Positions 7,801-41,073 of a stretch of 57,362 bases of DNA are shown piece by piece. The notes beneath the pieces are model-generated. The model was not told where the DNA came from. It searched no databases and saw only the letters and a list, made by a program, of their open reading frames with translations. The translations under genes were made by a program, and so were the position numbers. Position 1 is the stretch's first letter. The number at the start of each line of letters is the position of its first letter. Source of the stretch: Macrostomum lignano (taxonomy: Eukaryota); contig NIVC01004162.1 of the NCBI GenBank assembly GCA_002269645.1, positions 1 to 57,362 of the forward strand. Direction: 5' to 3'.

Positions 7801-10800
7801 GAGAACTAGTGTGCAATAAAAAAATTAAAAAAGTTCTTCCTCATCCAGTGACTGAGCGAATGGGGTGGGTTAGGTGCAATTCTCGTGGCAGTGGCTGTTG
7901 CTGCGGTGTGTAAGGTTTTTAGACTTGATTGGCTTTAGTAATTCAAAAACATACAGTCAAAAAACGCAGTTACCTCCTATATCGGCCAGAAGATTTTTCG
8001 CGGGGTAGGCCTCCTCTTCCGAAATTTCCTGACCATACGACGTCAATCCTTTAACCGTCAGTTGAGCCAGTCGGTCTCGAAGAAATTTTAGCTCGTTTTC
8101 AAAATTAATTCTATCGTGCAAGTTGCTCTCGGTCAGATTGCTTTCCAACATGACCAGAGAGCGCCAGTAAGTGCTGTAGATGCTGCTTATTCCTCTAAGA
8201 CGACTGTACTCTGTTCCTAAGCCAAAATTGTGCGCCAGCTTCTTTAGAATCTCCATCGACTTGGCGCCACTTAGATCCGGCCAAGCGTAGGAGATAAGCC
8301 GCATGTCGTAGTCGGTTTCCTCGCACGGCGACAAGGCTTTCTTAGCCGCCTCGAACTGGTACTGCAGCAGCTTCGATAACTGCTCTCTGTAGCATGATTC
8401 CCGTAGCCTTGACACAGTTCCCGTGTCATTGGTGTCAAAGCAGAAGGTATAGTTCGAGAATAACTCAACTTCAATTGGCAGAAATGATGGCAAGCAGTTA
8501 CATGCCTTAGCGAAATGTTGCACAGTAAATTTGTTTGTGTAGTCTTCTTTGCTTGGGATATTGTAGCGCCAATCCATTGCTTGCAGGGGTCTACAAAGTC
8601 AAATGTAAAAGATTTCATATCGTAGGATTAAACTGTTGGACAGGTTAAAATTTTGAGTACAGTATGCCACGCACCTCAACGCGTTTTGTTTTTCAAGTTG
8701 TGCTCGCAGAACAGCAATTTTTTGCCACCATTCCGAGGCTGCCTTAACGAAGTGTAAACGTATATTTTCCCTGAAATAGAAAGTCACGATAATGCAATTT
8801 AGGATCATACTTATGTCCAAGTAATATTTCCAGGCTTACTCATTAGAACTCGTGGTTTTAGCCTGCTTCCAAGACGGCATTCTGTAAGTTACAGGCTCCG
8901 TGTTCTCAACACAGGGCCTCGATGCAGTGGATAGCTTCTTAATTTTTTTAAAACTCAACTGAATATCCATGCTTTGAGCTGTGGCAACATCGACACCCTT
9001 TGACGGCCATGGGTAGCTGCCTTCTGGGACTATGACTGCCTGCAAAATTCAGATGTTCGTGAAAAACTAATAAAGTGGTAATTAAATAAAAGCTTCTACT
9101 AACAATGAGAAATAAGATTGAACAGGCGGGGTTGAGAACTAGGAACTAAGACATGGGAATTAGGACATGAAAAATTGAGAGAAGAACACAACGCAACGGC
9201 ATGGTACAAACAGTTTCAAAATATTCACTGTTTGTAGGACTTACTTTAAAAGCGATTTTTCTTTCATCATTGCTGACGGACCTGTGCACGATGCGGTTCA
9301 GCTTGTCCAATTCTGGTATTGTTCCACCATTCGAGTCTGTCAAGTCCGTGAAATATTTGATTGACAGCTGACTGTCCGCCAACTGCGAGCTGGACATGTT
9401 CTGGGTGAATCGCTGCTTCATAAAGTGGTGACACATGCCCAGCTGCGGGTGAGACACGCTCAGGAAGTCGTCTTTAGTGCAGCTCTGGCCACCGAAGGAG
9501 CACTCGGCCAGGGTGAAGCTCAGGTCGCTGCTGAACTGCAGGGCCAGCAGGTGGCTGCCGATGCCATCCCGGATCGCAGCAGTCACGGTGGGAACTTTAG
9601 TGTCTGCAAGACATCAATAAGAGCTAGAAAACTGTAGCACTTATTGACTGTGACATTTCTTCTACTTATCTTAAAGCTAAATACATGTACTATATTGTAT
9701 TGTGGCCTAAGCAGAAGGGGAGGGGCGAGGGGGGGGGACGTTCCTATTAAAAAAACAAACTAAAGAACTGATGGGTTCCTTTCATAAGACCGAAATTTCA
9801 CAACACCGAAAACTCCATATGCAAGACCCTTTACAAGTCCGAAAATTCATATGACGGAAAGTTCACATCGTAGAAAACTTAATAAAACAAGGACCATGCA
9901 AATATTTGGCGTTGTCAAATTTGGTCTTGTACGAGCTAGAGGGTCTCGTATATACTCGTAGAGTTTTCGGCGTTGTGAAATCACAGGCCTAAGATGAGAG
10001 GGACAGGCCCAAGGACAGGGGCGGGCGCCAATCGAGAGACAGACATTCAGACAGAAGTGAGACAGATGCAGGCAGAAACTGGCACAATATTTTTTAGGAC
10101 TATTTGACTGGCAAATGCTAAACTCACAGCAGGCGGGAATGTCGCACTTGGTCAATGCCAAATTTACCAAGTTGGATTTTCCGAAGGTGTCAGAAGCGCA
10201 GGAGGGAGCCTCGTCGTCTGATTTCAAATCTGGGTTCCGACTGAAATGTTCGATATGAGAACTTAGGGCTGCAAGTGTTTTGGCACTTAAATAATTACTG
10301 AATTGGCAGCACTATTAAGCGTATAGCTGCAATCAAAGCTTACTAATAAACCCTGTCTGAAAAGCCAAACTCCCGGATAATTTGAGCAGGCCTGCAAAAA
10401 TTGTCAGCACCTTCAAGCCGGTCATAGTCGGGCGTTTCCAAATGAATCCGCATTTTATAGTCATAGTTGGCTGAAATGTGACAGTTTAAAATATAAAGAC
10501 ATTTTGTTTAAATATTAAAAGCGCTGGAGGACAACTGGATTATATAAATAAATAAAATACTTTCACTCAACAACTACACAGTTTTTTTTATATCGTTATT
10601 GTGTTATTGTGTTTTGTTGTTACTGCTACTAGAGAAGAGTTTCTCATTCAGTCACAAATTGTTTTTGTCTGATGTTTCTAAACTTGTACGAGTAGTAGCG
10701 AAACTTGCTTCCCCGTATAATCGTTTGTATATAAAGTATACGTGTAACTTATAAAGTATAGCTACTTATAATCTAAAATTCTAATAAATGATTTTTTCTC

Positions 10801-13800
10801 GTCAATTAGTTTTTTTATTGTCCAAGACAACTATTAGACCATACTGCTAACTTAGCCCAGGTTTTTGTTGTTAAAGCGCTTTAAATATTATCATAAATTT
10901 TCCCGAAAAAACTTTCTTTCCTCGAAAAATCTCGTTAATTTTTTTAATTGAATATAATACTTACGAATAAATACTTCACCGTTCTACTAGTAACCACCAC
11001 CGTATTGGTTTTACACGTAAAACGCGTTTTATTATTTTACGTCTACATAGTACATGCACGTTACCAACTGGATCTATTTTTTGCTTTCTCTGCTTGTTTC
11101 GTTCCACGATCTGGTTCCAGGCCAAGCAGGGCTCTCCCGAGGCCGCCACATTCCTGTAGCCGGTGTAGACGGCCTGCTGTCGCTGCCGAGCTGCTTCGTC
11201 AGCTGTACCAGAAATGCAGTCATAGCCGGAATTCATGCCTATAAAATGATGTTGTAGTACTCCTAAAGTTACTGAAATTTTATTAAGTTTATTAAGGAAT
11301 CGCTGTCTGCATCAGCGGTTAGACGCTACTCATACATGCTACACTGTCAAAACCGGAGATTGCGACGTTTGCCAGCCGATGTTAATAGTCGACGTCGTCA
11401 TACAAGTCATTAAGTAGATTAAGTGCGTTGCTCGTACATTACTAGACTATACACGCTTATGCATTCGCATGTATAAACATGTAGGTAGTCTGGAGCTTAG
11501 ACTCAAGGGCCACTAGAAGTTACCGTTGTAGCAGTTGTGTTACAGCCTGAATACGAGTACAACGGTAACTTCTAATCGTCCTTGCTTAGACTTCTACCCA
11601 CGGTAATTTATTTGGAACTCGTGAATCCTGGCCGAACGCCAACCGTCGAATCGCGTGGCCTTTTATTAAGCTCCGAAAATTCCGTCTGCTCAAATTGTTT
11701 CATAGCGAATGTATGGTCAGCATCTTTACGGGCGTTATAGAAATCTAAATGAACTCAGTAGAAGGCATGAGGGGGCTTTTGGGACAAAATTTTTCACGTC
11801 CTCCATAATCCCATTAAATCCATCCATATTATCCCTGACAGAATCAGAAAAAAAGGGGGGTCGCACTCGCTCCGAAAACGTCCTCCATAATCCACCTAAA
11901 TCCATCCATATTATCCCTGACAGAATCAGAAAAAAGGGGGGTCGCACTCGCTCACAAAACGTCCTCCATAATCCCATTAAATCCATCCATATAATCCCTG
12001 ACAGAATCAGAGCAGGTGTCCACTGATACCTGTTATGTTCACTGACACTGACATCCACCCATAGCATCTTCGAAACAATCAGAAAATAATCTGCATTCTT
12101 CTCCCCATGGGGCCCACATTCAATTTGCAACGTGCTACCACATCCCTAAGACTTTAAATCCCCAAACCATGGGTCCTTACCCTTTGAAAAAAAACTAAAT
12201 TCTCAATAAAAATGTTTCCAGTTGTCTCTCCAGGTTCTTATTATACTCAGCCTCATCCATTGTACAAATCCAAGTACCGATGCAAACTAGAATGCAGCGA
12301 GTACATGAGAAAATATTGGCCCGACGTTGATATCAATGTCCCTAATATTAATCAAGCACTTAAATCTCACTGGTTTGAAAAACACGGAGTAGTCATTAAC
12401 AATTTTGACAGCTATTATAACTTTGCTGAAGTTATAAGGCAGTTGTAGTAGCCAACTACACGGTTGTACCCTGTAGAGTGCAGACGCAAGATCTAAAAAT
12501 ACTGACAAAATCATGTGCAGCATATAGCGGCTCGTATTAGTTACATTTGTAAGCGATAGCTTACTGATAGTAAAGCTATTTGAACATGGCGCGAATTCCT
12601 CACATGGTTGACTAGAAAATGTCGCCATGTGCAAGGCAAGGACTTGGTGCAAGGGCGTATAAATAGCAGTTCCACTCAGCTGGCTAGAGGTGGAGCCGAC
12701 CTCGTGTGGCTATGACTGACTGACGAGGGCAAACAAGCCCGAAACCGGTCTCAGTCTGCCCCGCATGGTTCGATTCCCACTGGTTACATGATTTTCACGA
12801 ACGTTCGTAAAAATCATGTGCAGCATAAAGCGGCTCTCAGTGGTTACATGATTTTTACGAACGTTCGTAAAAATCATGTGCAGCATAAAGCGGCTCTCAG
12901 TGGTTACATGATTTTTACGAACGTTCGTAAAAATCATGTGCATAACAAGAATTCGCACGAATTCAACTGTGCAAAATAGCATTTTTCTGAGAAAGACTAG
13001 TGCGCAGTTGGATTCGCGCCATTTCCTGTCTTAACAGGAATTCGCACGAATTCAACTGTGCAAAAAAAAGCTTTTTTTCTGAGAAAGACTAATGACAGAC
13101 TTGTGTTTTTTATGTGCGAATACTTGCGAAGTTAACCAACTTTTGGCATAATAAAACAATAGACTGAGCACAGACTATCTTTTTGTGTCCGATTTCTTTT
13201 GTGTTTTCAATCCTTTCACTAAATACTGGTTAGAAAAAAAATAATGCTTGGTCAGTCCAAAAAGCGTGAGGTTGCCTACTAATAAGTATTATGACTAGAA
13301 AAATATACTAAAAATTCGAAATAGAACTGAAATAAAATATTTAGTTATTTTAACATCACATTCTCTCAATGATCAACGTCAATACAAACTCTTCACAGTT
13401 GAAATCAACACCCATCCCATCTTCAATCTCAAACTGTAGCACAATCTCGTGAATCTCCTTATTACTCAATACAACTCTTTTCACTGGATTTGGTTTCTCT
13501 ACCACCATCTGTCCTCCAGCTACAGAGTTGGAGATATTGTACAAAATATTCGTTCGCTTTCCCTTAAATACCCAATCAAGACTGAGATTAGTTCTGATTA
13601 GAATATTCAAACCCTTTACAATGTCTGCTATATTGGGTGCTAAGAACAAACCGCGTACACTTTCCCGGGCCATGCTAACGGTCCCCAATGCTTGAGTGGC
13701 GGTCCGCGCCGCGGATTCTGCCTTATAAACTTTCTTCTCGAATCCCAGTTCCCTATACCAAGTGTCATCTTTAAACTCAACCTCCGCATCTTTGTGAACT

Positions 13801-16800
13801 TGCATGACCACTCTCACTACAGTGAGATCATAGGTTAGTTTGACAGGGAACAGTTTCTTCTCTGGCTTACTCGCATCAGGTGTCTCAAAATGGCCTCTCT
13901 TAGTAAAGACATTTTCTAGAAAGTTATTGTAGGTATCCACACTTTGCGTGCTCACCTGGAATACCACAGGGTCTGCTGCTGCACCTTTCCATTTGTAATA
14001 AAACTTATTATTTGCTGCCATCACATTGGGAACGTTTGACCAACCAGTGAAGTCGTTAAGATAGACATGGTAATTAGCGCCTGGATCCAGGCGAATCGCC
14101 TGCTCTAATTTTTCAACAAACATCCCGTTTGAGTCATTAATTCGCCCAGTTATTGTAATAGGAATGCTCTCCTTGGAGTGCGAAATAATATTATTTAGTC
14201 TTTCAGCAATCGCTTCCATTTTTTTTCACATAAAAAATATTTAAACTTTACTGGATGAATTGTTGATCATGTTAAGCTTCACCTTCCTCTCAAATGCATA
14301 GATAATGTACAAGTCCACGGGTGTTGCGACAGTCCTTTCAATGTTAGTCACGATATTCACAGGGCTGTTATCAGTAGGCATTTGTCTGGCAGACACATCA
14401 GCTCCAAACATCGGATATAGAGTTCCATATTGAAGAGCAGTGATAGCAATTCCATTGTTCTCTTTCACAGCCAAGTCGACCAACTCGCTGTAAAATTTGC
14501 TAATCTTGTTCTGACTGAAATCTCCATTTTGTGGCAGTGCAGGGTAAAGATTATCACTGATTTCATGCTGAATGGACCGCACGTCTCCATGCATGTAGCG
14601 TATAATGCTATTTGGGTTTCTCATATTAATAATGATATACCTTGGATTGCTGCATGATCCCTCTTTGATGCAGATGTTTGTTCTAGTTTCGTTTCGCTCA
14701 TCTCGACACATGTAGGCCGTGTATGCAACATCAATGTCCTTCTCTATTGCCTTAAGATAGTCTGCTTTTAGTGCAGTCTTTGGCTCAATGACTTCCAAAT
14801 ACAGCTCGATTCCGGTTAGCTTCACCTCCATCCTTGTGTGGTCCGCCCCAGTCCACAACACTCTACTGCGATCATCTCTAGTCAGTCTAAATGTGTAGCT
14901 AAAGTTACTAGTCAGTCGATTAAATGTATTACAGAATCCACTCATGAATCTCAGTGGTACAAATACATCAACAGACCGATACTGCGGGTTCTTAGCAGCA
15001 TCATCAGCACCTTGCAATGCATAGTTGTATCTCTTCTTCCTATTTTTATAACCACTGTCATTGATATCTCCTTCTTTTTCATCTGCAATAAAACCCGCAC
15101 CACTTCCCAACTGAATAAAATCAGGATTCTCGATCAAACAATGAGCGTCATAGACAATTCCAAAGTTGGCGATTCGCTCCAACTCTGTGCTCCCATTCGA
15201 TACACTAAACTCCTTGAACATGTACGCCCAAAAGTTACTGATCAGAGCCACATCCGCATCATGCTTGTCAACGTTAGCACGAGCCGCATCCGCACCACCT
15301 TTTGTCTTGAATTGAAATGTCATATGGAAGCCGCTCTTAAGACTGTGCACACTAACCAGAGACGAACATCCATTGTATGTAAATGTCAGTGTTTGACCTG
15401 GACCCAAATTAGTTTCATTCTGGTTCTCGTGACTCGGAACTCTAACTTGTGTCGCTTTGATTGTGCTATCATCACTCAAAATAGGCTTGTTAATTTTGTA
15501 GAAAACTGGTGTCAGTGGGTCGTTCATTTTTTAACTAAAAATAAAATAAAATAAGAAATGAAGCGGAAAAGTACACAGCAGATATCTGAATTGGAGAAGC
15601 TAGCACAAGCAGAGAAACGAGTTACCGGGCTAATAAATAAGGAGCAACAATCCTACAATGAGTTTGTCCAAGCAGCCACAGAGTTTCATAAGCCCGGGTA
15701 TGGAGAAGCTAAGAAAAATATTGATCAGGTCAAAGAAACTATCGACGACATACAGGAAACCCAAGTGCAAAAGGTTTTGGGCAAAATTCCAGAAGCACCA
15801 CAGATACAGCCGCAACCACAACAACCACAACCACATCAATCACAACTAAAAGTGACAGATAACATTTTTGGACCAGTAGAGCGTGTCGAACATGATGGGA
15901 AATATGTATTTGGAATAAGTATGTGGAGAAGAAACATTTATAATGAACCAGTGGAATATTATATCGACATAAATAAGAAACATATTTCTGTTGTCAAAGG
16001 CTCGGAAACTAAGAGCATTCCTTTCACAGAAACCTTACTGACTTTTATGACCAAGAACCAAGAGAGAATCTCGGACAAACAGCTAAAGAACTATAGAGAT
16101 CTAGTGACTTTTGCTCTTGCTAGAGATATAGCAATACTAAAGGCCCCAGAAGTCCTGAGACTTATGTATGATAACGGTGTCAACCTGACTAGATTCAAAA
16201 AGTACAATCACTTTAAACAATGGTTCGATTTGCCAGATCAGGCGGAAGTCATAAAATATCTAGAACAACAACAACAACAGCAACAACAACCACAACCACA
16301 GCAGCAGCAACATTTCACAGAAGTACTCAGGCAACTGGAAAATGCAGATCCGACTCAAGTAGCTGAATATAAGAAACAAAACCCAACAGATTGGCAACAC
16401 TTAGAACAACACTCTCCAGATCGAATGAACAGAATCAAGCAAAGAGTTTTCACACCTCAACAAAGACAGGCACCACATGACAGTTCCATCTCTGAAAGTG
16501 AGCAGTCTTTTGCATCACCTCCCCAGCAGCCACAAGCCCAACCAACTCCACAACCTCAAGACCAACCGCCCTCAACTGGAAAAGGCATGCCTGAATTCTA
16601 CAAGCGGTTAGCTGTTCTTCTAGGAGCGGCAAAGACCGGAATGAAAGACGAGAATAGAAAAGAATTTGTCAACATCCTGGACAAAATGCTTGAGAGAAAA
16701 TATATCGATAAAAGAGCAAGAGAACTTTTGCTTTCACGGTTTAACAAAAAATAAATTTCTATTTAAAATGATGCCAATTATTTTCGAAAAAGACATTGAC

Positions 16801-19800
16801 AAATACTATGACAAAGAGGAACTTAATCTCATTAAACGCGGATCTGGACTTTTCCCTGCAGGCCACTATCCAAGAAAAGAACGCTCAGGGAACGGTCTTG
16901 CCGATTTGATCGCTCAGGGGGCCAAGATTTTTAAGGTCATTGGAGAGAACAAAGAGAACATCAAGAACGTTGCCGAAGCGGCTGGCAGTGTAGCCACAGC
17001 AGCCAAAAAGATAAAGGATACTGTAACACCTAAACAAGAGATTCAACCGCTGGCTCCGCTGGCCCCAAATCCAGACAATGTGGACCCTGCAGTCTATGAG
17101 AAGATGAGAGCTAGCATTAAAAAGGGAAGCGGTTTCAAATTTGACTAAAGGGTACTTTTCAAGGGTACAAGACATGTAAGAGTATAAGACTAGTCCTGAA
17201 ATGACACATCTAAGTCCCAAAATGACACATCTAAGTCCCAAAATGACACATCTAAGTCCCAAAACGACACATTCAAGTCCCGAAATGACACATCTTCTAA
17301 ATGATTTATTATTTAATTTTTTTTCAATCATAGAAAAAATGGACTTCTCAAACGACTTCAATCCTCACTGGACGCGTAATCAGATTAAGTTTTCTCATCA
17401 CGAGTCAATCCCGAGTCACTTCAGATGCATTGTTGTTGGTTCATCAGGTTCAGGTAAAACATTCAGAGTCTTTAACATGCTTCTTAGACCTGGCTTTATC
17501 GACTATGACACTCTGCACATCTACTCTCCCACACTGTATCAAGATGAGTATAAAATGCTGATTTCTGGATTGCAAAACAAACTGAACAAAGAGGACATTA
17601 TTCAATGTGTTTAATAACCAAATGAGCCTTCCCAGTAACCCTGAAATTGTAGCTGCTGAATATGCAAAGCACCTCAAAGACAATGAAAAATGGCAGAACA
17701 TTAAAGTGTTCACCTATGGAGATCCGCAGGCTGATCCAAAGACCAAACTTCTACCCCAACCAGATGAGCTAGAAAAAGGGAGAAAGCATTTGATCGTCTT
17801 TGATGATTGTATGACAGGCCCACAGAAGCAGATAGAAAACTATTTTACAAGAGGGCGACATAACAATTGTAATGTAATTTACATTGCACAGAACTGGTTC
17901 GAGCTCCCGAACAAAACAATTCGTGGGAACTGCAATCTGATTCTCCTGTTTCCAACCATTCCACAGGATAGGCTAAAAAGATTTTACAATGAGGTCATTG
18001 CGCCTGCCTATTTTATAAATCCAACAAAAAACTCAAGCAGAAAGATTTCACAAGAGGAATTCGTTAATCTTTGCTATGACAAGTGGAACCAACCCTATCA
18101 GTTTGTCATGATCAACAAGGAAAAAAGAACTGTAATTTAAAATTTGCTAATAAAAGATGTCTATTAATTTTGCAGGTGAATCCATTTCTGGCAACAGCGC
18201 TCTTACATCAGCTCAAATATCCATCCTTGACAGGCGATATATCAACAGCGACGAAAAGATCCCAGAGATCAAACTGAATAAAAACAGACTGAAAGCCCTG
18301 GAGCGCTCCATGCACCAGTTGCAAATAAACATGGAAGATCTCAGGCTTAAAGTAGCTAGGCAGAAGTTTGAAAGTGATAAGCTTTATGTGCCGTTGTTAA
18401 ACGCAACTAATGAACTTAGGTCAGAAATAACTTCGGCAGTCTCGCAAATCAACAGCTTAAGATCGACAGTTAATCTTCTGGGAAATTCCACTGATAGACG
18501 GATGCGTATTCTTGAAGGAGGAGTTTTCACAAACACAGCTAAAGTGAATAATTTAGAAGAGTTCATGAACCAGTCAACAGCGTTGCATGATAGAATTAAA
18601 GAAAACGTCGCAACCAACATAGGTAAAGTGAGGAATTTAGAAGAGTTCATGACTCAGTCAACAGCGTTGCATGATCGAATCAAAGAAAGACTTGAAGCAT
18701 TAAAGAGAAAGGATGTATCACACAGTAGCTATCTAAACGGAATGTATAGCGCTTGGGGTAAAATAATAAGGAGGCTTGATCGTCTGGAGAGAACACTCAA
18801 TCTTCGTGATATTGCTATTGATGAAGCAGAATCTACTGCTCGTCCGGTCATGTCTATTAATGAAATTATCGAATTTCATCAAAATCAAATCAAATCAAAA
18901 GAAAACAGATCTTTTTTTTCAAAACAATAGATCTTCAAACCGGATAGTTTTGTAATTTTTTTATTTTTTCTAGGGAAAAATGGCCCAACAAAATTCTCTA
19001 TACGATCAGTCTCAATACGTTGAACCTAAAATACCGACAGCACCAAACCCAATGGCACCGAATTCGAACACACAAAGCCTGAATGCACCGAATCTGAATG
19101 CACCTCAATATGAGCAACAAAAACTCTACCCCGTCATTACTTGTAACTCTCAGCAGTTTCGATTGGTGGAGATTCAAAAAATGCGAGATGATCTTGAAAA
19201 AAATATTTTCCACAACACAAAGAAAATTAAGCGCTATGACAGCCACTGTAAATTTTTCGACTATAGCAATATGATTCTAGGAACTGTGTCTGTTCTATCT
19301 GGATCTGCTGCAGCTGGGCCGTATGAATAAAAAAAAGAAATTTTTTTCTTGCAAGAAATCCAAGAATTTCTTGCGTTTATAAGAATAAAAAACTGCGAGT
19401 TTCTTGCAAGATTTTCTCGCCAAGAAAATCTCGAGCTTTCACAAGAAAAGATTTGCTCGGCAAGAAAATCTCACGAGGAAAAGATTTTCTTGCTTTCTGA
19501 TAAATAATTCTACCCCCCACGCAGCGTCTTATAACATGCTCGCAGTTTTTTTTGCATTGTTTCTGGGCTCCTGCAAAGAGTAATCACGATATACATGTAA
19601 AAAATTGGCAACCATTCGATGCCAGGACGCTCAATCTCAGGGTAAAATTTCAAAGCAAAGTGACTTTCCTGTCACCTGATGTTCAGGTAAACTCCACATG
19701 GATTTTGCCACTTTCTAGTAGGATTTTTCTGGACGGATTTTCGGTGTTCACGTGGTTTTAGCCATAGACACAGCATGGGCTGCGCCCAAGCCTGAGGAGA

Positions 19801-22800
19801 CGGCCGTCGATTCCACGTCACCGACATCTTGGTTTGGGCCCTAGACAACTTTCAGCCAAGTGGCAGTCGCCGAGAAAATCTCACGAGCCGAGAAACTTTT
19901 ATTCATGTCTTTTCTAGAATATCTTGACTCGTAAGATTTTCTCCAACAGATTTTCTTGCCGGAAAAGAATTTCTTTAATTTTTCTCATTTTTCTCATTTT
20001 CTCAATTTTTCTCATTTTTCTCATTTTTCTCAAGATTTTCTCACGTTTTATTCATACGGCCCGCTGTCTCAACGTTGCCAGTCATCACAGCCCCAATCGC
20101 AATCCCACTCGGCTCTGTGGGTGCTGCATGTGGACTTATTTCAGCAATTACTGGAGCATTAGCGCGAAACAGGCGAAAAAAACTAAAACAGCTACAGGAG
20201 AAGCAAGTAAAAGAGAAAGGGGTGCACACTTCAATCATAGGGTACATTTCAAGGGCAATCGAGGATAAGTTCATTTCAGAGGATGAGTTCAAAACCATTC
20301 AGGATCTTTATGAACAATCAATTCGAATGAACTTGAACATGGTCGGTACTGATGACATGAGTCAGCTGAGAAATGAACTCGAGAAAGTTCTTCAACATTA
20401 TGCGGAAAGAAGGACAACGAGAAATTCGGTAAGAAGGACGACGAGAAATGCACAATGAACCCCTATGAAACACAGGTACGAATAATTTCCTTGTAGGTCT
20501 TTCGTGTTTTGGTCATTGCAAACAAAACAGTCATGCACAGCTCACCGCAAATATCACTGCTAAGACCTTGGAGAATAAAGTCTGAGCGATAAATTTTTTT
20601 ATTCTTTTTTCCCTTCATATAATTTCTTAGCTCTTCTGGTACTGCCGTCCCATAGCTATCGAAGTAATAACACTTGTGCTTGCGATCGGGATCAATCACC
20701 CAGCAAACCCAATGAGATCCTGGCTTATCGGTGGTGTCAAAGTTCATGATGCCGCATTCCTTTCTTAGAGGAAAATCAGGCAGAGTGTCCCTCATAAATA
20801 TTTCTCTAAAGTTTGGGATTTCCAGTTCGTTAGCCAAATCTTCAAGAAAGTTATTTGTCGTCATTTTTTTGAGTTTTATTAAACTTTCTCTTAAACCTAA
20901 ACCTAGTCTCCACCTCCTAAACCCAACCTCCTAAGCCTAATCTCCAATGCCCGAACGGTAGACTGTTAATATTGTCATCAAAAATGAATCTTTGTTATCT
21001 GCACCTGACAGTCCAATCTTCTTTTGCTGAATTGTGTGAATAATATGGTTTTTAGATTGTAGCTTTGAGAACTCATGTGATGTCTTTTTGTTGCAATTCA
21101 AGGCGTCTCTGTATTCAGCTTCATTAATTTCCTTCCTAACTACACGTTTCGGAATTCCCTTTGATTTTTTATTGGGTCTGACGACTCACATTTTATAAAA
21201 TAGGACTTTGCTCTCAACCCAATGAATTCAGTGATTATGTCACCAGCAATCTCGTCCTTCATTTTCCCAATCACTTTCTTGTTAGTGGCGTCAAACACTT
21301 GATCGCCATTCTGTGTCCTGAAAGATCATCAACTCAGACAAGTCAAACAAATCTTTTTGCTGCAGCATGTCCTGATAAATGTCTTCTGTTTGAATGTCCA
21401 TAATAAAACTGTCTGTGTCAGTGTACAAGAGTTTCATTTTATCCTTGTACTGCTGCTTCATGCCATAGAAGAACTGGTACATCAGACGTTTTGATTCGTC
21501 GAGACAGTGACACCTGTATAGATCGGCTTGCGCAGCGTCACCTTGGTTTTGTAAAATATGATCACACCTAAGTAGCTATTAAAGATATGGAGTTCTTTGA
21601 ATGTTGGCTTTGACATATTTGCCTGAATAACAGCAGGCTCTGATGAGGTAACAAGTTTCAGGTTTGTTCTTTTCCTCTCATTCTCAAGAGTCTTGCCATA
21701 GACAGAGTTGTTGGCCAACTTAAAGAGGTTCTTGTCAAAGTCGTTGGTTGCTTTGGTCCTAAACTGGGTGTTCTTATCAATGTAGGGTTTCATCCACGCT
21801 TCCTCTGTAAATGTAAGAGCCCTGTGAACTTTGGTGACCCTGCAACCAAGTGAGATAAAATACTGAAGCAGTTTGTAATGGATTTTGTAACGTGTCTTGT
21901 TGTTTAGATTCTGTGTTAGTTTCTCTGTATGTTCTTTTTCTGTTCCTGACAGGTGCCAAGTTCCATTATTATCATTGGGAGTTTCGATTATTTTCGGGCA
22001 CTTGATGTTTTCTGGGAAGGGTGGAAAGTCAGAAATAGTCGTGAAGCTCTGGTGGAATGTAAACATCAACCTCATAAATGGCAGCCAATGAAAAGTCCCA
22101 CTTTAGTTCTGATGAGGGTAGCCATCGAAAATCTCTAACTGGAAGATCTTGACTCATCGCCCACCCGTAGAGATTATTAGCGTCCAAGTAAGTAATGTAG
22201 TTTGAGGGCTGCTCCTTATTGTAAGATTCAATGTAGGGATTGTTTGCTTTTGCATACTATGTGCAAATTGAGATTCCCCCTCGCTTTGACGATTCGACAA
22301 AATTGTACATGTCAATGTCTGTAAGAAGTTCAATGTACCAATCTGGATCTTGATCCCATTTCATTTTAAGCAAAGATTCCCAGCTAGTGGCAGGCAGAGA
22401 CACATAATGTGCTGGATCGAGGCCATATGCTGTGTACCAGGTGTATCTGAAGGTTTCAAACACATCGGCCAGCAGAAACACATCTGTGAAGAGGTAAAGC
22501 AGGTGATACTGGAAGAAGTTTTGACAATTAAAGTAATTATAGACATGCTTCGCGTGCTCATAGTCTTTGTCAGAGATTCCAGAGTCTGTTAGCTTTGAAA
22601 AGAACTTCTCCTGTGGTGGTAAACCTTCTTCAAATACGTGATACCCAGTAATATTTTCATAGGGGTAGAAGCCTTTCTTTCTTAAAAGTTTAAATGATTC
22701 ATCACTGTTGTTAATTTTACTTGCAAACATCTTTGTATATGTACATTGTTCATCTTTTAGATTCTTGCTTAGTTCGTCTAGACTGGCAGCTAGAAATTGA

Positions 22801-25800
22801 TATGAATCCTTCAGTCTTATTTTACCTGTACCCGAATTATCCTGTTTAATATCAACACACTTAAACTTCTCCTTGTTCTCTGCGATGCAGTCAAGGTGTA
22901 TGTCTGGAATCATGCCGATTTTTTCAACTATTAAATGCATGTCATAGTTCTTTGCGTTGTGACAAAATATCGTTAGATCATGAATGTTCGATTTTAGCTT
23001 TAGATTACAGGTGTTATGCGCTGCACCTCTAAATTTCCCAGTAAAGTGGCAGTGGTCCCTAACGGTGGGGTTTTTAATATTAGTGCAAGTTAAATGTTTC
23101 CTGCAGATGTGGCAATGAGTTGCTGATAGGAAATTGCTTTCATCCTCCTCAGACATACTTATTGGAATAGGTTGAAGGGTGCTAATCACTCTTTGCAACT
23201 CTAACATTCTGGCAATAAACTGCTCCACACACTGCTCTCCAAAGAAATAATTAGACTCAACAAGTCCTTTTGTAGTAATACGAGCTAAAGGCATATGCTA
23301 CTGAATTGGGGACATGTTTTTGAGTTTGAGTTTGTTTTTGTGTTTCCGGCACGATTGAGCATTCAAAATCAGCATATACAACAAATGGGAGCTTCTCCAT
23401 CTTGTGATAGTTCTTAAACCGGAGATACTTCTCTTCAGCTGAAGGAAGAGAGCAGTTTGTCGGGTGATCCTCGCATGATAATTCATGCTCTGTTAGCTTT
23501 TCAAAGCGTTCAGGTCCACTGTAATGCTTAAGGCACAAGCGGCAGATGGCAACAGCCTCGTGATGATTATTCAACTGCTTGTGAATGAGTCTTGAAAGAT
23601 CTTTAACCCAAACATAGTGAGCCTCCTCTAGTAAATTACCAATCACTAGAAGATCCACTTCAGTCCGCCTTTTCCCCTCAGGATCTAAAACGTCTTTGCT
23701 ACATCTGACCGGTTGAACTTTTTTCAGTTTTCTCACTCCACTCAAAGACTGTGATTCTAATTTTGTTATTAAACACTTCTTCTAGCTTTGGGATCTGAGA
23801 GATCGCCAAGCCTCCTTTGTCAAACCTGATTCCCTTCTTTTCGCATTCGATGAGATAGTAGTTGAAATAATTTTGATAATTTGAGGTTCTTTCGGGGTGG
23901 TGAGGGACACTATCATAAAGAAGTGCAGAAAGAACTGCCCATAGAGCACAGCAATTGTCTTTATTTTTAACATTTATGCAAGCTTTTTTGCCGGCTAGCT
24001 TGTATGGGAGCTCTATATAAGAGGAGGCTTTAAGTGGGTCATATTTCATGACCATGACAGTCGCTCTTTGAATCCCTCCCACGACCCATCCGGAACCTCT
24101 GGATGTAAACGCTTCAATTTTCTTATTGACATCTTGAAGGAAAGGATCCAGTGTGTCTGTTGGGGTGAATGGCTTTGCCTTTGTTGTCATGTAATACTCG
24201 AGATGCTCAGTGGGTTTTGCAGGCATATAAAACGCAATCTTGAATGATATCTGTAGTTTAAAAGTCTTGCGTGTTTTGAGTGTGTGATCAACAACTGATT
24301 GGATGCTGTCTTTATAGTCGTAGATGTTTGCGGTGGTACCGTTGGTGCCGTTAATTGGGATTGTGTACTCTATGTAATGTTCTGTAAACTTCCTCTGTGC
24401 AAAATTAATCTCTTCAGTGGCAAGCTCCGACTCTTTTAAATGGATTAATTGCTCTAATTTCTCTTGTTCCTGCTTATTTTGTGGGTACTTTGCTTTTTCA
24501 CCAGTGAGAGTTTCGTATTTGTTAACTAAGTTGCGACTCTCTCTTGGTGTTCTTTGCAGGATTTTGATAGGCACATACTGGTTGGATTCTAATTGTTGAT
24601 GATTTCCAACTGTTTTTCATAGCTTCCCAGGTGACCGGGGTCGGTGTTAAACTTTTGTTTACATGCTTCTCTTAGTAAATTACTTTTGTCTTGAAATGAG
24701 ACGCCTTTTGAAAAATGTTTGTTGACTAAATCTTTTGCTGGATTAGCTTTTGGCATTTTTTTCTCTAAAATAAAACAAATTTTTGAGGGTGACCACCCTG
24801 ATAGAAAAGTTGAACTGTTTCTACATCCTATAAGTAGCGCTAGGTTTATGAAGCTGGATAAAGTGGGGTTTAAAACCTCATCACATGCGCATTATTGTAA
24901 ACCCAGCATTGTGCAGTGTCATGATTGCTTTGACAATGTCAGACTTGCTTACAGAATTTTCATTCTCACAATCATCACGATCGGGGCAGGCCTCTCCTGC
25001 CTTAATTGTTATACCTTTGTCTCTTGCAATCTTTTGCAATTCCAGCTGGTGGGCTCTATCATTCCCAGCTTTAACAGCAGTTGCTACACCTCCAGCTACA
25101 CCACCTGCGGCACTTACAGCGCCTGCAATGATCGGAATAAGAGCTGCTAATGGTAGGATTCCTCCTGACTTTTCATCTGTGATGCTGTGTCTTTGCTCAT
25201 TACACTGAAGTATTTGCTGCGTGGGATCGATTTTTACTTTGGCACCTTTAATTGATATAATACCTGGTTTCTTTGATTCAATGATTTTATTGAGTTTATT
25301 GATGGTTCTGGTTTCAATCTTTGTCATTTTTTATTTTAATATTTTAATTAATTTCTGTGTCAGCTGGTATCACTAGGAGTTCAGCTCTAGTGAATGACCG
25401 CGTGGGGGATTTAGGGTTAAAGGCTTGAGATAAAAAGTAATAGTCACCGGAGTCGGAGGTAAAATGTCTGTCTATTTTATGCACATCAAGGCTGAAGTAT
25501 GGATCTGTAGCTCTTCTTTTGGTGTCCTTCTCTAGCTCTCCAGGTAGATATAAAAAGCGTAGAAACTCAGAGTTTGTCAGTATGTATGGTGATTCAACTC
25601 CTGGAAGCTTAGGGTAGTTCGAGGTGTGTTTTGTGTTGTGTGTGTTGTGTGGGGTGGTCGTGTTGTTGTCTGTTCTATGAGATGCCTTAAGTTCGACAGT
25701 GTCTTGTTTAATTGCATGGGATGGTTTCAATCCAGTCATGCGTGTGACTTCATTGTTCAGTTGCTCTATAACAGTGGGGAGTCTATCTGTCCACTTGGTA

Positions 25801-28800
25801 TAGTACTGCCCCGCACTCAGTTTGAGTTCTTGCGCTGTCTGCTTAGTGAATAGTCTCTTGGCTAGAGTTAGATTGAATCTTTCCACAAAAGCCTGGTCTC
25901 TGTGGAGCTCAGTTCTGCCATAGCGAATCTCTGTGTTTTTCTTTTCCATAAGGGATTTCACTACACCCATGAATTCCTTACCCGGGTCGGTCATAAAGAT
26001 TTGGGGGTATGTGAGCGGAGAGTTTTTATAAATATCTTGGAGGGCGGCTGCAACTGCTTCTGACTTCTTCGTCTTAAGCGGTCTCGCTTCCTTATATCTG
26101 GAGGCAACGTCTGTAATTGTAAGAGCATACTTGTAGCCTGAGTCGTTGGGGAGAAACAAAAGATCTGCTTGGTGCGCTTCATTAGGTTTATAAATACTGA
26201 AATGGGGCCTTTCAAATTTTACTGGTGGGAAATAGACTTGAAAGACAGCCTGCTTAGAGAGCCATTTTTCTACTGTAGCTTTTGGCTCCTTACTCAGCTC
26301 CATGAGTTTACTAACGGCATTTTTTGCCTACAAAGAATCCTTTGTCGCTGTAGTAGAGTTTTTTAAGTTTCTGATCTGTCATTTATTTAAAAAGAAAATT
26401 TTAAATAAAATAATGCAACGCTCTGGTGGTAAAATAGATTCACATGGACTGATAGAAAAGCTTCCTCATCCAAACAAAGGCTGGACACTTCCCGGCTATA
26501 AATATTGCGGGCCTTTGAATCCTCTTGAAATACAGTTAGATAAAAACAATAATCCAAATCCTGGGCATGAGCCTGTGAATGAGCTAGACTCTGTCTGCAT
26601 GTGGCACGATGTTAAATATAGAGATTTTCCTGAGGAGAAGAATCGCTGGGACAAAGAAATGCTTAAGAGACTAGACAATATAGGGGCTTCAAGCGGATTT
26701 CGTGAGTCGATCGCTCGGAAGCTAGTTAAAGCTGTTATTTTTAGTAAGACAAAACTGGGGTTGGGGGTGTACGCCGAGGGCGGGTGTTTGGGGAGAGAGG
26801 GCGAGTGCACGGGGAGAGAGGGCGAACGCACGGGAGCAGAGTTTATTTTGTGCGCTCCTAACAATGAATTGGGAAGACTGCTGAAAGAGCTGGGGGTAGA
26901 AAGGGGCGCTTGAATCGGGAAGGGCATGAGCAAGTGTGGATTTGAGTAAGTACAGTTTTTTATTCCCTAAAGAGTTGCGCACAAGATAGATTCTCATTCT
27001 CCAGAGAGCTAAGAGCAGAAAATAAAAAAGTCAACCGCTTCGCTCCCATTAGCATGCATGGACTGTGTATGTTGAGATTCCCTCCTTGATTGATATTGAT
27101 TATTGGCCAAATTGCGAGGCCAGTTGGCCCGCCGAGTTGGCCTCGGCCCGCCGATTTGGCCTCGGAATGTGGCCCGCCTAGTTGGTCTATACGGTATGAA
27201 TATCTAAAAATAGCCTACGAGTATGAGCGTATAAATTCAAGGAAGAACTGTGCACGTCTCGCCACACTTGGCACATGCCTTCTCTTTCGACTCTCAAGGA
27301 ACGTGTTATTGCATTGAAACGGAAACAAAATAGTAAACTAGGACCCCTCACAGCCAGCCACAGAAAATCTGACTTCAGAAGGATTAATATAGAAGTATTT
27401 CTACAAGAAGAGGAGCCGCAATATAAGGAAAACGAACTATTTTTGCAACGTCTTCGGGAGTATCGATCCTCGCGAAATAAACTTCACCATCTAGAAGAAA
27501 CCGTTCGTACACAAACTAGATTCAATCAAGAAAGACGTGCGGAAGAAGAGGAAGCGGATAATATCCGCTTCCAAGAGGCCGATCCACCACTGCCTAACCA
27601 TCCGCCTGTGGAATCGCCGGCGTTAACAAATTTGCCACCGCCACCGACGACATGGCTTCAACCGCCAACCCAACTGGCCGCGTCGCAGCCTGGTCTATCA
27701 CAACCACCGATCCAGCCGAAGGCTGAGCCAATGGTTACGGATTGGTCAAATTCTGGAGGGCTGTGCCCCTATTGTCAACACGAACCACAATATCCTGTTT
27801 TTACTACATGTTGCAGGGGCGTCTTCTGCAACCAGTGTTTGACAACCGCACTTGCTCAGGGTGAGCAAACCTGTCCTCTCTGCAGGAGCCCCAGAGAACA
27901 AGTGTAACTGTAACTTTTTTACTCGAGCATACTACTGAACTATGTTGATTAAACTGGAGGTGAAAGGTTTTTTCCTAGAAGTCGAGATAATTATTTCTTT
28001 AAACTTTTTACTCGAGCATACTACTGAACTATGTTGATTAAACTGGAGGTGAAAGGTTTTTTCCTAGAAGTCGAGATAATTATTTCTTTAAACTTTTTAC
28101 TCGAGCATACTACTGAACGGTACATAAATACACTCGTGTGTCATCGATGGCGATCTGTTATTTGAAAAGTGACAGATCATGTTCGAAGTTTTCGGAGCAA
28201 GTAGGACACCTGTTATGCTCTGATTCTGTCAGGGATAATATGGATGGATTTAATAGGATTATGGAGGATGTTTTGTGAGCGAGTGCGACCCCCCTTTTTT
28301 CTGATTCTGTCAGGGATAATATGGATGGATTTAGGTGGATTATGGAGGACGTTTTCGGAGCGAGTGCGACCCCCCTTTTTTTCTGATTCTGTCAGGGATA
28401 ATATGGATGGATTTAATGGGATTATGGAGGACGTGAAAAATTTTGTCCCAAAAGCCCCCTCATGCCTTCTACTGAACTCTATCAATGACCACTTTCGACG
28501 AAAATTAGACGAAAAACTTAGACGAAACGGATCGCCTCCTGAAGAGTAATCTTGAAAGAAATTTAGCGCGGACCTCTTACCTAATGCCTGTGTTAAATAG
28601 TTCTATTTCTAACATCTGTACACTTATTCACGGTTAAAGCCTCTTGACTCAATGCTTTTGACCAGTTTGCAAATTTGAACCGAGAACAGTTTGAAACTGG
28701 CCCCATCAGCAAATCAAAAGTTCAGAAGGCGTGTGCGGTGTCCTTCTACAACAGCAGCGTTCAAAATTGAAGCCTTAGAAACCTACGGCAGAGTGGGACG

Positions 28801-38867: not shown

Positions 38868-41073
<2,206 letters not shown>

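Follow-up and report, generated by a model that had tools for sequence, protein, structure and literature searches.

The window analysed here is a 57,362-nucleotide stretch of the Macrostomum lignano genome (GenBank assembly GCA_002269645.1, contig NIVC01004162.1, positions 1 to 57,362 of the forward strand). It contains a Polinton/Maverick element, at the capsid end of which we find a hammerhead ribozyme motif lying between sequences that resemble the A and B boxes of RNA polymerase III (Pol III) promoters. A genome search with positions 12640-12800 returned 40 matches from 47 candidates: 14 are free copies at eight loci, 25 lie in Polintons and one belongs to an older, related family. The free copies identify the sequence as the long terminal repeat (LTR) of a terminal-repeat retrotransposon in miniature (TRIM) of the host, a solo copy of which resides in the Polinton. 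The features concerned are listed below (TSD, target site duplication); published descriptions cited here and later are taken from partial texts.

11757..28473, no strand assigned: Polinton/Maverick element, with terminal inverted repeats (TIRs) of about 260 bp, a TSD and hallmark genes
12543..12547, plus strand: 5' copy of the LTR TSD, ACATT; the 3' copy (12786-12790) reads ACATG in the window
12548..12785, plus strand: solo LTR of the host TRIM, starting TGTAAG exactly like the free LTRs
12630..12647, plus strand: 18-nt insertion in U3, confined to Polinton copies (16/25, against 0/14 free LTRs)
12658..12665, plus strand: TATA box, TATAAATA, in 22/25 Polinton copies; all 14 free LTRs read CATAAATA
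12681..12693, plus strand: A-box-like motif, TGGCTAGAGGTGG, of the TRGCY ... YGG form given for Helenus elements (PMC10886601)
12704..12764, plus strand: hammerhead of the extended type I form (core 12720-12750), with cleavage predicted after C12750 and helix III predicted to be intermolecular
12767..12777, plus strand: B box, GGTTCGATTCC, containing GGTTC and kept, though decayed, in the older LTR family
12775..12954, no strand assigned: target array of the LTR, made up of three 60-bp repeats that each contain a 34-nt palindrome and a T4/T5 run

Inspection of the sequence places stem I of the hammerhead in GACTGA (12714-19) paired with TCAGTC (12751-56), followed by the core element CTGACGA (12720-26), stem II (GGGC at 12727-30 with GCCC at 12737-40, loop AAACAA) and GAAA (12741-44). 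The CUGANGA, GAAA and UH elements are thus present in type I stem order, and cleavage is predicted after C12750. Helix III is weak and consists of the palindrome ACCGGT (12744-49). The original prediction had recognised this complete type I fold and its cut site correctly, and had compared it with minimal hammerheads; stem I continues beyond a UAU/U internal loop (GGC at 12708-10 with GCC at 12758-60), which makes the motif an extended and not a minimal one. The Infernal-type scan suggested at that stage does detect it, as Rfam HH9 covers 12702-12774 (32.7 bits, E 3.7e-6), although the gathering score of 52 is not reached, and no match at or above the gathering score was obtained in the whole window. 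Genome-wide, the core pattern gave 54 matches versus 12 with a reversed control; a looser pattern applied to the window alone gave 8 matches versus 3.9 +/- 2.5 expected, which is chance level. When two copies are co-folded they pair through ACCGGU and both cores are open (-52.7 versus -24.8 kcal/mol for a single copy), and the palindromic helix III is predicted to pair between two molecules. Animal motifs with a weak helix III have been described as pairing between two copies (PMC7229834, PMC7761336). In an alignment of eight LTRs 85.7% of helix cells are paired, well above slid controls, with only one-sided (wobble) changes.

The Pol III-like elements noted earlier (A-box-like motif, B box, TATA box and the T runs downstream, T4 at 12792 and T5 at 12852) are all present, and a second, weaker A-box candidate at 12672-83 overlaps the first. 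ARAGORN detected no tRNA gene or fold in the LTR, and there was no Rfam tRNA match up to an E value of 10; the hammerhead between the boxes may mask tRNA-derived sequence.

At the free loci the LTR is 230 bp long (TGTAAG...CTGATA) and the interior is non-coding and 160-162 bp long, giving a full two-LTR unit of 620 bp. This is the anatomy of a TRIM: less than 1 kb, two LTRs and a non-coding interior. Five of the eight loci carry a single LTR and the others two, three and four; all share identical LTR start and end boundaries, with no tails and no 5' truncation, and their TSDs of 5 bp, inside the 4-6-bp range used to define such duplications, are perfect at seven loci and have one mismatch at the eighth. 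The primer binding site (PBS), TGGTTCCCTG, lies 2 nt past the LTR and complements the 3' end of host tRNA-Glu over 10 nt; this tRNA gave 37 pattern matches in the genome, and ARAGORN made calls on five of the six loci fetched, all of them tRNA-Glu. A polypurine tract (PPT) directly abuts the 3' LTR, so that both priming signals sit at the ends of the interior. Both LTRs of the unit carry the hammerhead, an arrangement which, together with the PBS and PPT, characterises the LTR retrozymes of plants. The free element is therefore a TRIM with a hammerhead and Pol III boxes in its LTR. The segment originally singled out, 12547-12782, almost coincides with the LTR, and it does occur dispersed in the genome, yet as the LTR of a TRIM and not as an ordinary retrozyme.

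The TRIM interior and the 18-nt PBS region match only six units at three loci. Eight full matches to the PBS-like tRNA-Glu complement were found, six of them in tRNA-Glu-like sequences, and a pattern joining the end of the older LTR to the PBS had no match in the genome. The other two, at L190 and L194, were considered as autonomous partners and rejected, with no second LTR within the roughly 19 kb fetched; their long open reading frames (ORFs) resemble, as judged by eye, simple repeats or host exons. Outside this genome, no relatives were found in viral contigs, and twelve metagenome matches lacked the stems, none being matched by the LTR profile; with few animal genomes in these collections, both results are little informative.

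Other hammerheads in the genome place this family in context. Nine of 18 hammerhead loci examined outside the family have the same LTR layout, and most of the others are Penelope-like motifs followed by CT runs. A search with one of the older LTRs gave 40 scored matches from 281 candidates; each of the 30 loci loaded contains a single LTR match within 3 kb, ending TGTGA...TCACA where intact and in some cases bordered by decayed 5-bp flanks. These older solo LTRs are 74-86% alike (the query's own locus excluded). Because they are homologous and keep the LTR ends, the B box and the same core, the combination of LTR and hammerhead is old in the host, the young family being a recent offshoot of it.

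At its base, stem II is mostly unpaired in the older family (A opposite A in place of G-C; L085-L088, L094, L096, L098, L100, L101, L107 and L200-L229), either a natural variant or shared decay. Hammerheads with an ACCGGT helix III followed by CT microsatellites were also seen (L073, L084, L091-L093, L097, L099 and L102, two of them in tandem), and these look Penelope-type.

Within the Polintons the LTR has a constant structure. All 25 copies start at the first base of the LTR and all are missing about 10 nt of U5, the T4 run among them; the 3' end reads GATA in 17 and GGTT in the remaining eight, among them the window, the latter being the same as the neighbouring repeat unit. A sister copy (L108) retains a perfect ACATT duplication around the LTR, and two further loci (L154 and L155) have a single, uninterrupted repeat unit and represent the empty site. 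The heptamer GTTACAT (12540-46 and 12783-89), at first proposed as a TSD, occurs on both sides in only three of the 25 sister copies; since the units of L154 and L155 are uninterrupted and L108 has the ACATT duplication, it is part of the 60-bp repeat and the actual TSD is the 5-bp ACATT. Most members of the Polinton family lack the insertion. Among the orthologous integrase-side ends (41 matches from 133 candidates, 30 loaded) the LTR is present in six and absent from 24, of which two lie near contig ends, and an exact 22-mer from the pPolB gene has 228 genome matches versus the 25 LTR carriers, or about one in nine. The Polinton LTR is only 2-7 substitutions away from the nearest free LTR (20 copies), which points to one recent insertion into a Polinton lineage. 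Hitch-hiking, one of the possibilities raised in the original prediction, is supported by these empty sisters, by the free copies at eight loci and by the cores broken in 13 of the 25 carriers, and the sequence is likely to be a passenger; what has hitch-hiked is, however, not a plain retrozyme or short interspersed element (SINE) but a solo LTR, derived from a TRIM that has a PBS, a PPT and 5-bp TSDs.

The LTR-plus-repeat cassette lies at the integrase end in six of ten fetched elements, where it points into the integrase-side genes. In the window it occupies the capsid end, where other copies have nothing or an ORF, and is directed towards the 3' end of a gene on the other strand. Its presence at either end suggests that terminal cassettes have been exchanged.

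The number of matches to the 60-bp repeat varies from one to 23 per locus (12775-12954 in the window; L006 and others), and 87 exact matches to a 22-mer from it occur beside LTR-bearing copies only, plus one empty-site copy. The repeat is reminiscent of the palindromic enhancer or origin arrays of large DNA viruses. At position 12734 both alleles of the free TRIM are also present among the Polinton copies, although there was only one insertion, which may reflect parallel change or gene conversion with free copies.

The explanation that we consider probable is that the free element is a host LTR retrozyme, likely to move by way of a self-cleaved circular RNA of 390 nt, and that the solo LTR in the Polinton is likely to be a passenger. 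Pol III, directed by the A and B boxes, would be the likely polymerase for transcription starting within the 5' LTR, and would have to read through the single T4 run; a start driven by the TATA region is an alternative. The hammerheads of two successive LTRs would then cut, likely as a dimer through ACCGGU, and free a 390-nt monomer with a 5'-OH and a 2',3'-cyclic phosphate, which a host ligase could close into a circle. Reverse transcription round the circle would be primed by tRNA-Glu and second-strand synthesis by the PPT, giving cDNAs with one to four LTRs, and these would be inserted by a borrowed integrase, with 5-bp TSDs, the reverse transcriptase also coming from another element. The model for plant retrozymes predicts such a mixture of solo, full and multimeric insertions (PMC4918200). 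The Polinton copy could not form such a circle because it has no second hammerhead, PBS or PPT, and would spread instead by copying of the Polinton and by exchange of terminal cassettes.

Folded as a circle, the 390-nt hammerhead-to-hammerhead unit has an energy of -146.5 kcal/mol versus -114.9 +/- 5.8 for 60 shuffles (z -5.4), and its sole T4 run sits just behind the B box. Four of the 24 listed sequencing runs, from four studies, were examined, their RNA nature being only a guess. Each of the four yielded one 420-nt contig (390+30) with free-TRIM alleles, and in run X2 the ends of this contig overlap by 30 nt, which is compatible with, but no proof of, an abundant circle or concatemer. Positions 12496-12523 of the window are without cover in the four runs, which proves nothing.

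Several observations weigh against this explanation. The minimum-energy fold of the monomer mispairs the hammerhead core and so blocks it. There are no compensatory double changes among the eight aligned LTRs, and their pairing is not above that of shuffles (97/500). A looped contig can also derive from the tandem genomic arrays, and the runs may hold DNA. As regards the retrotransposon, three of the eight free-locus TSDs lie within tandem repeats and are weakened by this, the PBS match is only 10 nt long, and the termini of the young family are TG...TA and not TG...CA, as in the older one. Searches with the interior and PBS found no autonomous partner, no search by reverse transcriptase or integrase family having been made. 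Concerning the passenger status of the Polinton copy, the excess of variants in the hammerhead, when counted as segregating sites (8/43 versus 19/167), falls short of significance (p 0.21), and the loss of T4 in all 25 copies, the TATA box in 22/25 and the low diversity around the boxes would be expected equally from co-option and from a founder effect.

The state of the ribozyme in the Polintons bears on this choice. The catalytic core is broken in 13/25 copies, 11 times at position 12741 and twice by a 10-nt deletion, and intact in 12; when near-identical loci and those with shared flanks are collapsed, 11/20 copies are broken. Both lesions occur at several distinct insertion sites. Position 12741 corresponds to G12 in hammerhead numbering. 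The G12 lesion, also present in one free LTR, is tied to one haplotype (9/10 versus 0/8 distinct copies, p 4e-4), so that it was inherited through Polinton copying and did not arise anew each time. Diversity among 17 Polinton copies (L001, L005 and L108 were excluded, since their upstream sequence differs) is 0.046 in the hammerhead, 0.012 in U3, 0.009 in the B-box part and 0.009-0.018 in the rest of the LTR. With 13/25 cores broken and a broken haplotype that kept spreading, the evidence says that the Polinton does not need hammerhead cleavage.

In one alternative the donor would be the same TRIM, and a branch of the Polintons would have co-opted the LTR as a promoter, the ribozyme being dispensable; we regard this as unlikely. 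Two forms can be envisaged, a Pol III transcript of about 130-190 nt, similar to the virus-associated (VA) RNAs and ending in the palindromic 60-bp repeats, or a TATA box driving the integrase-side genes. The uniform loss of the T4 run, a TATA box found in none of the 14 free LTRs and the position of U3 and the boxes as the least variable parts of the LTR would all follow, as would the cassettes directed into integrase-side genes; in addition, a contig from run X7 bridges the junction between the LTR and the 60-bp repeats, and the predicted 3' product of the Polinton copy folds as a long hairpin (z -2.05). Against this, about nine in ten family members lack the LTR, the cassette in the window faces the 3' end of a gene on the opposite strand, low diversity is equally expected of so recent a capture, and the contigs, from runs that may be DNA, give neither strand nor start. 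That a Polinton branch has domesticated the LTR as a small-RNA gene, by shedding the terminator and gaining a TATA box while the ribozyme decays, with the palindromic array giving a VA-like hairpin RNA, we think rather improbable; if true, it would be a recent and still polymorphic example of a DNA virus lineage gaining a Pol III RNA.

It is also very unlikely that the PBS and PPT are coincidental and the free element no more than a tandem tRNA-derived SINE or an ordinary retrozyme of the non-LTR, Penelope-dependent kind. A period of about 390 bp and a type I hammerhead whose helix III is palindromic are typical of metazoan repeats (PMC7229834), Penelope-like hammerhead motifs are present in the same genome and the PBS is short, but the constant LTR boundaries and 5-bp TSDs at all eight free loci, the absence of tails and 5' truncation, the exact placement of PBS and PPT and the TG...CA ends of the older family speak against it. 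Least credible, and already largely refuted, is a self-cleaving viral non-coding RNA, in which the Polinton would need the hammerhead to mature a VA-like transcript, as the original prediction had also envisaged: the 12 intact cores and the outline of a plausible unit given by the boxes and downstream T runs are outweighed by 13 cores broken by two different lesions at several insertion sites, by the absence of the LTR from most of the family and by its recent origin in a host TRIM.

The host element itself was correctly assigned as a Polinton. Its TIRs (11755-12014 and 28216-28475) are bordered by a 6-bp TSD, GAACTC (11751-56 and 28474-79), and Pfam matches identify the following hallmark genes, several of them under the Pfam cut-offs and some divided among several ORFs.

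14241-15527: double jelly-roll (DJR) capsid
17201-17614: A32 ATPase
20463-20864: protease C5
22257-23294, minus strand: DNA_pol_B_2 (pPolB)
25344-26303: rve integrase

An endonuclease VII-like match (E 8e-5) lies ahead of the pPolB domain, the polymerase region being split over several ORFs, and an ORF adjoining the integrase (24881-25327, minus strand) matches adenovirus protein X/mu (PF05829, E 4e-7) above the cut-off. Both ends of elements of this family contain exchangeable cargo slots (12447-13355 and 26800-28200 in the window), as judged from loci L049, L050, L053, L062-L066 and L001. These slots may be empty or hold the LTR-plus-repeat cassette, a 240-aa ORF (L050), a 347-aa ORF (L001) that by eye looks related to it, or a RING-finger gene (27275-27907). 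Contig C1584 carries two inverted capsid-end Polinton fragments about 7 kb apart (L065 and L066) and a similar pair is found on C633, possibly palindromic deletion derivatives. Exons of an amiloride-sensitive channel lie on both sides of the Polinton (7957-8577 and 30624-31232, minus strand), which may place the element within an intron of this gene. Beyond them is a reading frame of 453 aa for Su(H)/CSL (38874-40235, plus strand), whose product shares 58-69% identity with proteins from arthropods, molluscs, annelids, nemerteans and vertebrates alike.

Adenovirus VA RNAs are short, hairpin-rich Pol III transcripts with internal A and B boxes. The Polinton LTR shares the boxes and a predicted hairpin transcript with them, but it is not family-wide, is recent and derives from a host TRIM. 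The Sm-alpha repeat of Schistosoma (PMC2770079, PMC4918200) is likewise mobile and combines tRNA-derived sequence with a type I hammerhead; it is, however, described as a SINE-like repeat that contains a full tRNA but neither PBS nor PPT, whereas the element described here has boxes only, within a true LTR. Metazoan non-LTR retrozymes (PMC7229834; 10.64898/2026.07.22.740005) resemble it in the extended type I hammerhead with a weak palindromic helix III, the unit of 150-450 nt and the tandem copies, but are defined as lacking LTR, PBS and PPT and as having long TSDs, whereas the host TRIM has all three together with a 5-bp TSD. Animal hammerhead repeats are in general described, in the parts of these sources consulted, as non-LTR or as lacking LTR, PBS and PPT (PMC4918200, PMC7229834, PMC7761336, 10.64898/2026.07.22.740005).

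The closest likenesses are to two other groups. The plant LTR retrozymes (Cervera et al. 2016, PMC4918200; PMC7761336) are also non-coding and TRIM-like, with a hammerhead in each LTR, PBS, PPT and TSD, solo, full and multimeric insertions and a well-folded hammerhead-to-hammerhead unit. They have a type III hammerhead, a tRNA-Met PBS, a 4-bp TSD and a unit of 600-1000 nt, in contrast to the type I motif, tRNA-Glu PBS, 5-bp TSD, 390-nt unit and Pol III boxes of this animal LTR. The Helenus or TRIMp3 elements (Kojima 2024, PMC10886601) are TRIMs whose LTRs contain tRNA-type A and B boxes; they have a PBS and a PPT and occur as solo LTRs and in tandem arrays. Their defining boxes (TRGCY and YGG; GGTTC) are present in the host TRIM, and bivalve families include tRNA-Glu primers. 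Animal families of Helenus have a 4-bp TSD, compared with 5 bp here, and carry tRNA-derived sequence, whereas no tRNA fold was detected in the LTR of the host TRIM. In the latter the hammerhead lies between the boxes; the sections of PMC10886601 consulted mention none for Helenus, and a word search of part of its consensus file, in which line breaks can hide matches, found no hammerhead core words. We found no description of a Polinton hammerhead or of an animal LTR retrozyme in the open-licence literature, although tables of the 2026 preprint might list the family.

The host TRIM thus appears to work like a plant LTR retrozyme and to look like a TRIMp3, yet fails defining features of both. 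The novelty seems to lie in the donor, which combines the LTR retrozyme design with Pol III boxes in an animal and is in effect a Helenus-like TRIM with a hammerhead. The division described so far sets the LTR elements of plants, with type III hammerheads, against the non-LTR elements of animals, which have type I hammerheads but lack a PBS, PPT or promoter; it is broken by a single 620-bp unit in which a type I hammerhead of the animal kind occurs together with true LTR anatomy and Pol III boxes. By implication, some of the ‘tandem retrozymes’ of animals may be TRIMs that have gone unrecognised. Insertions with one to four LTRs and TSDs open the circle-template model of retrozyme movement to direct testing in an animal, and the Polinton copy provides a dated case of a virus-like element acquiring a ribozyme-bearing host LTR, by which the motif could be moved between hosts.

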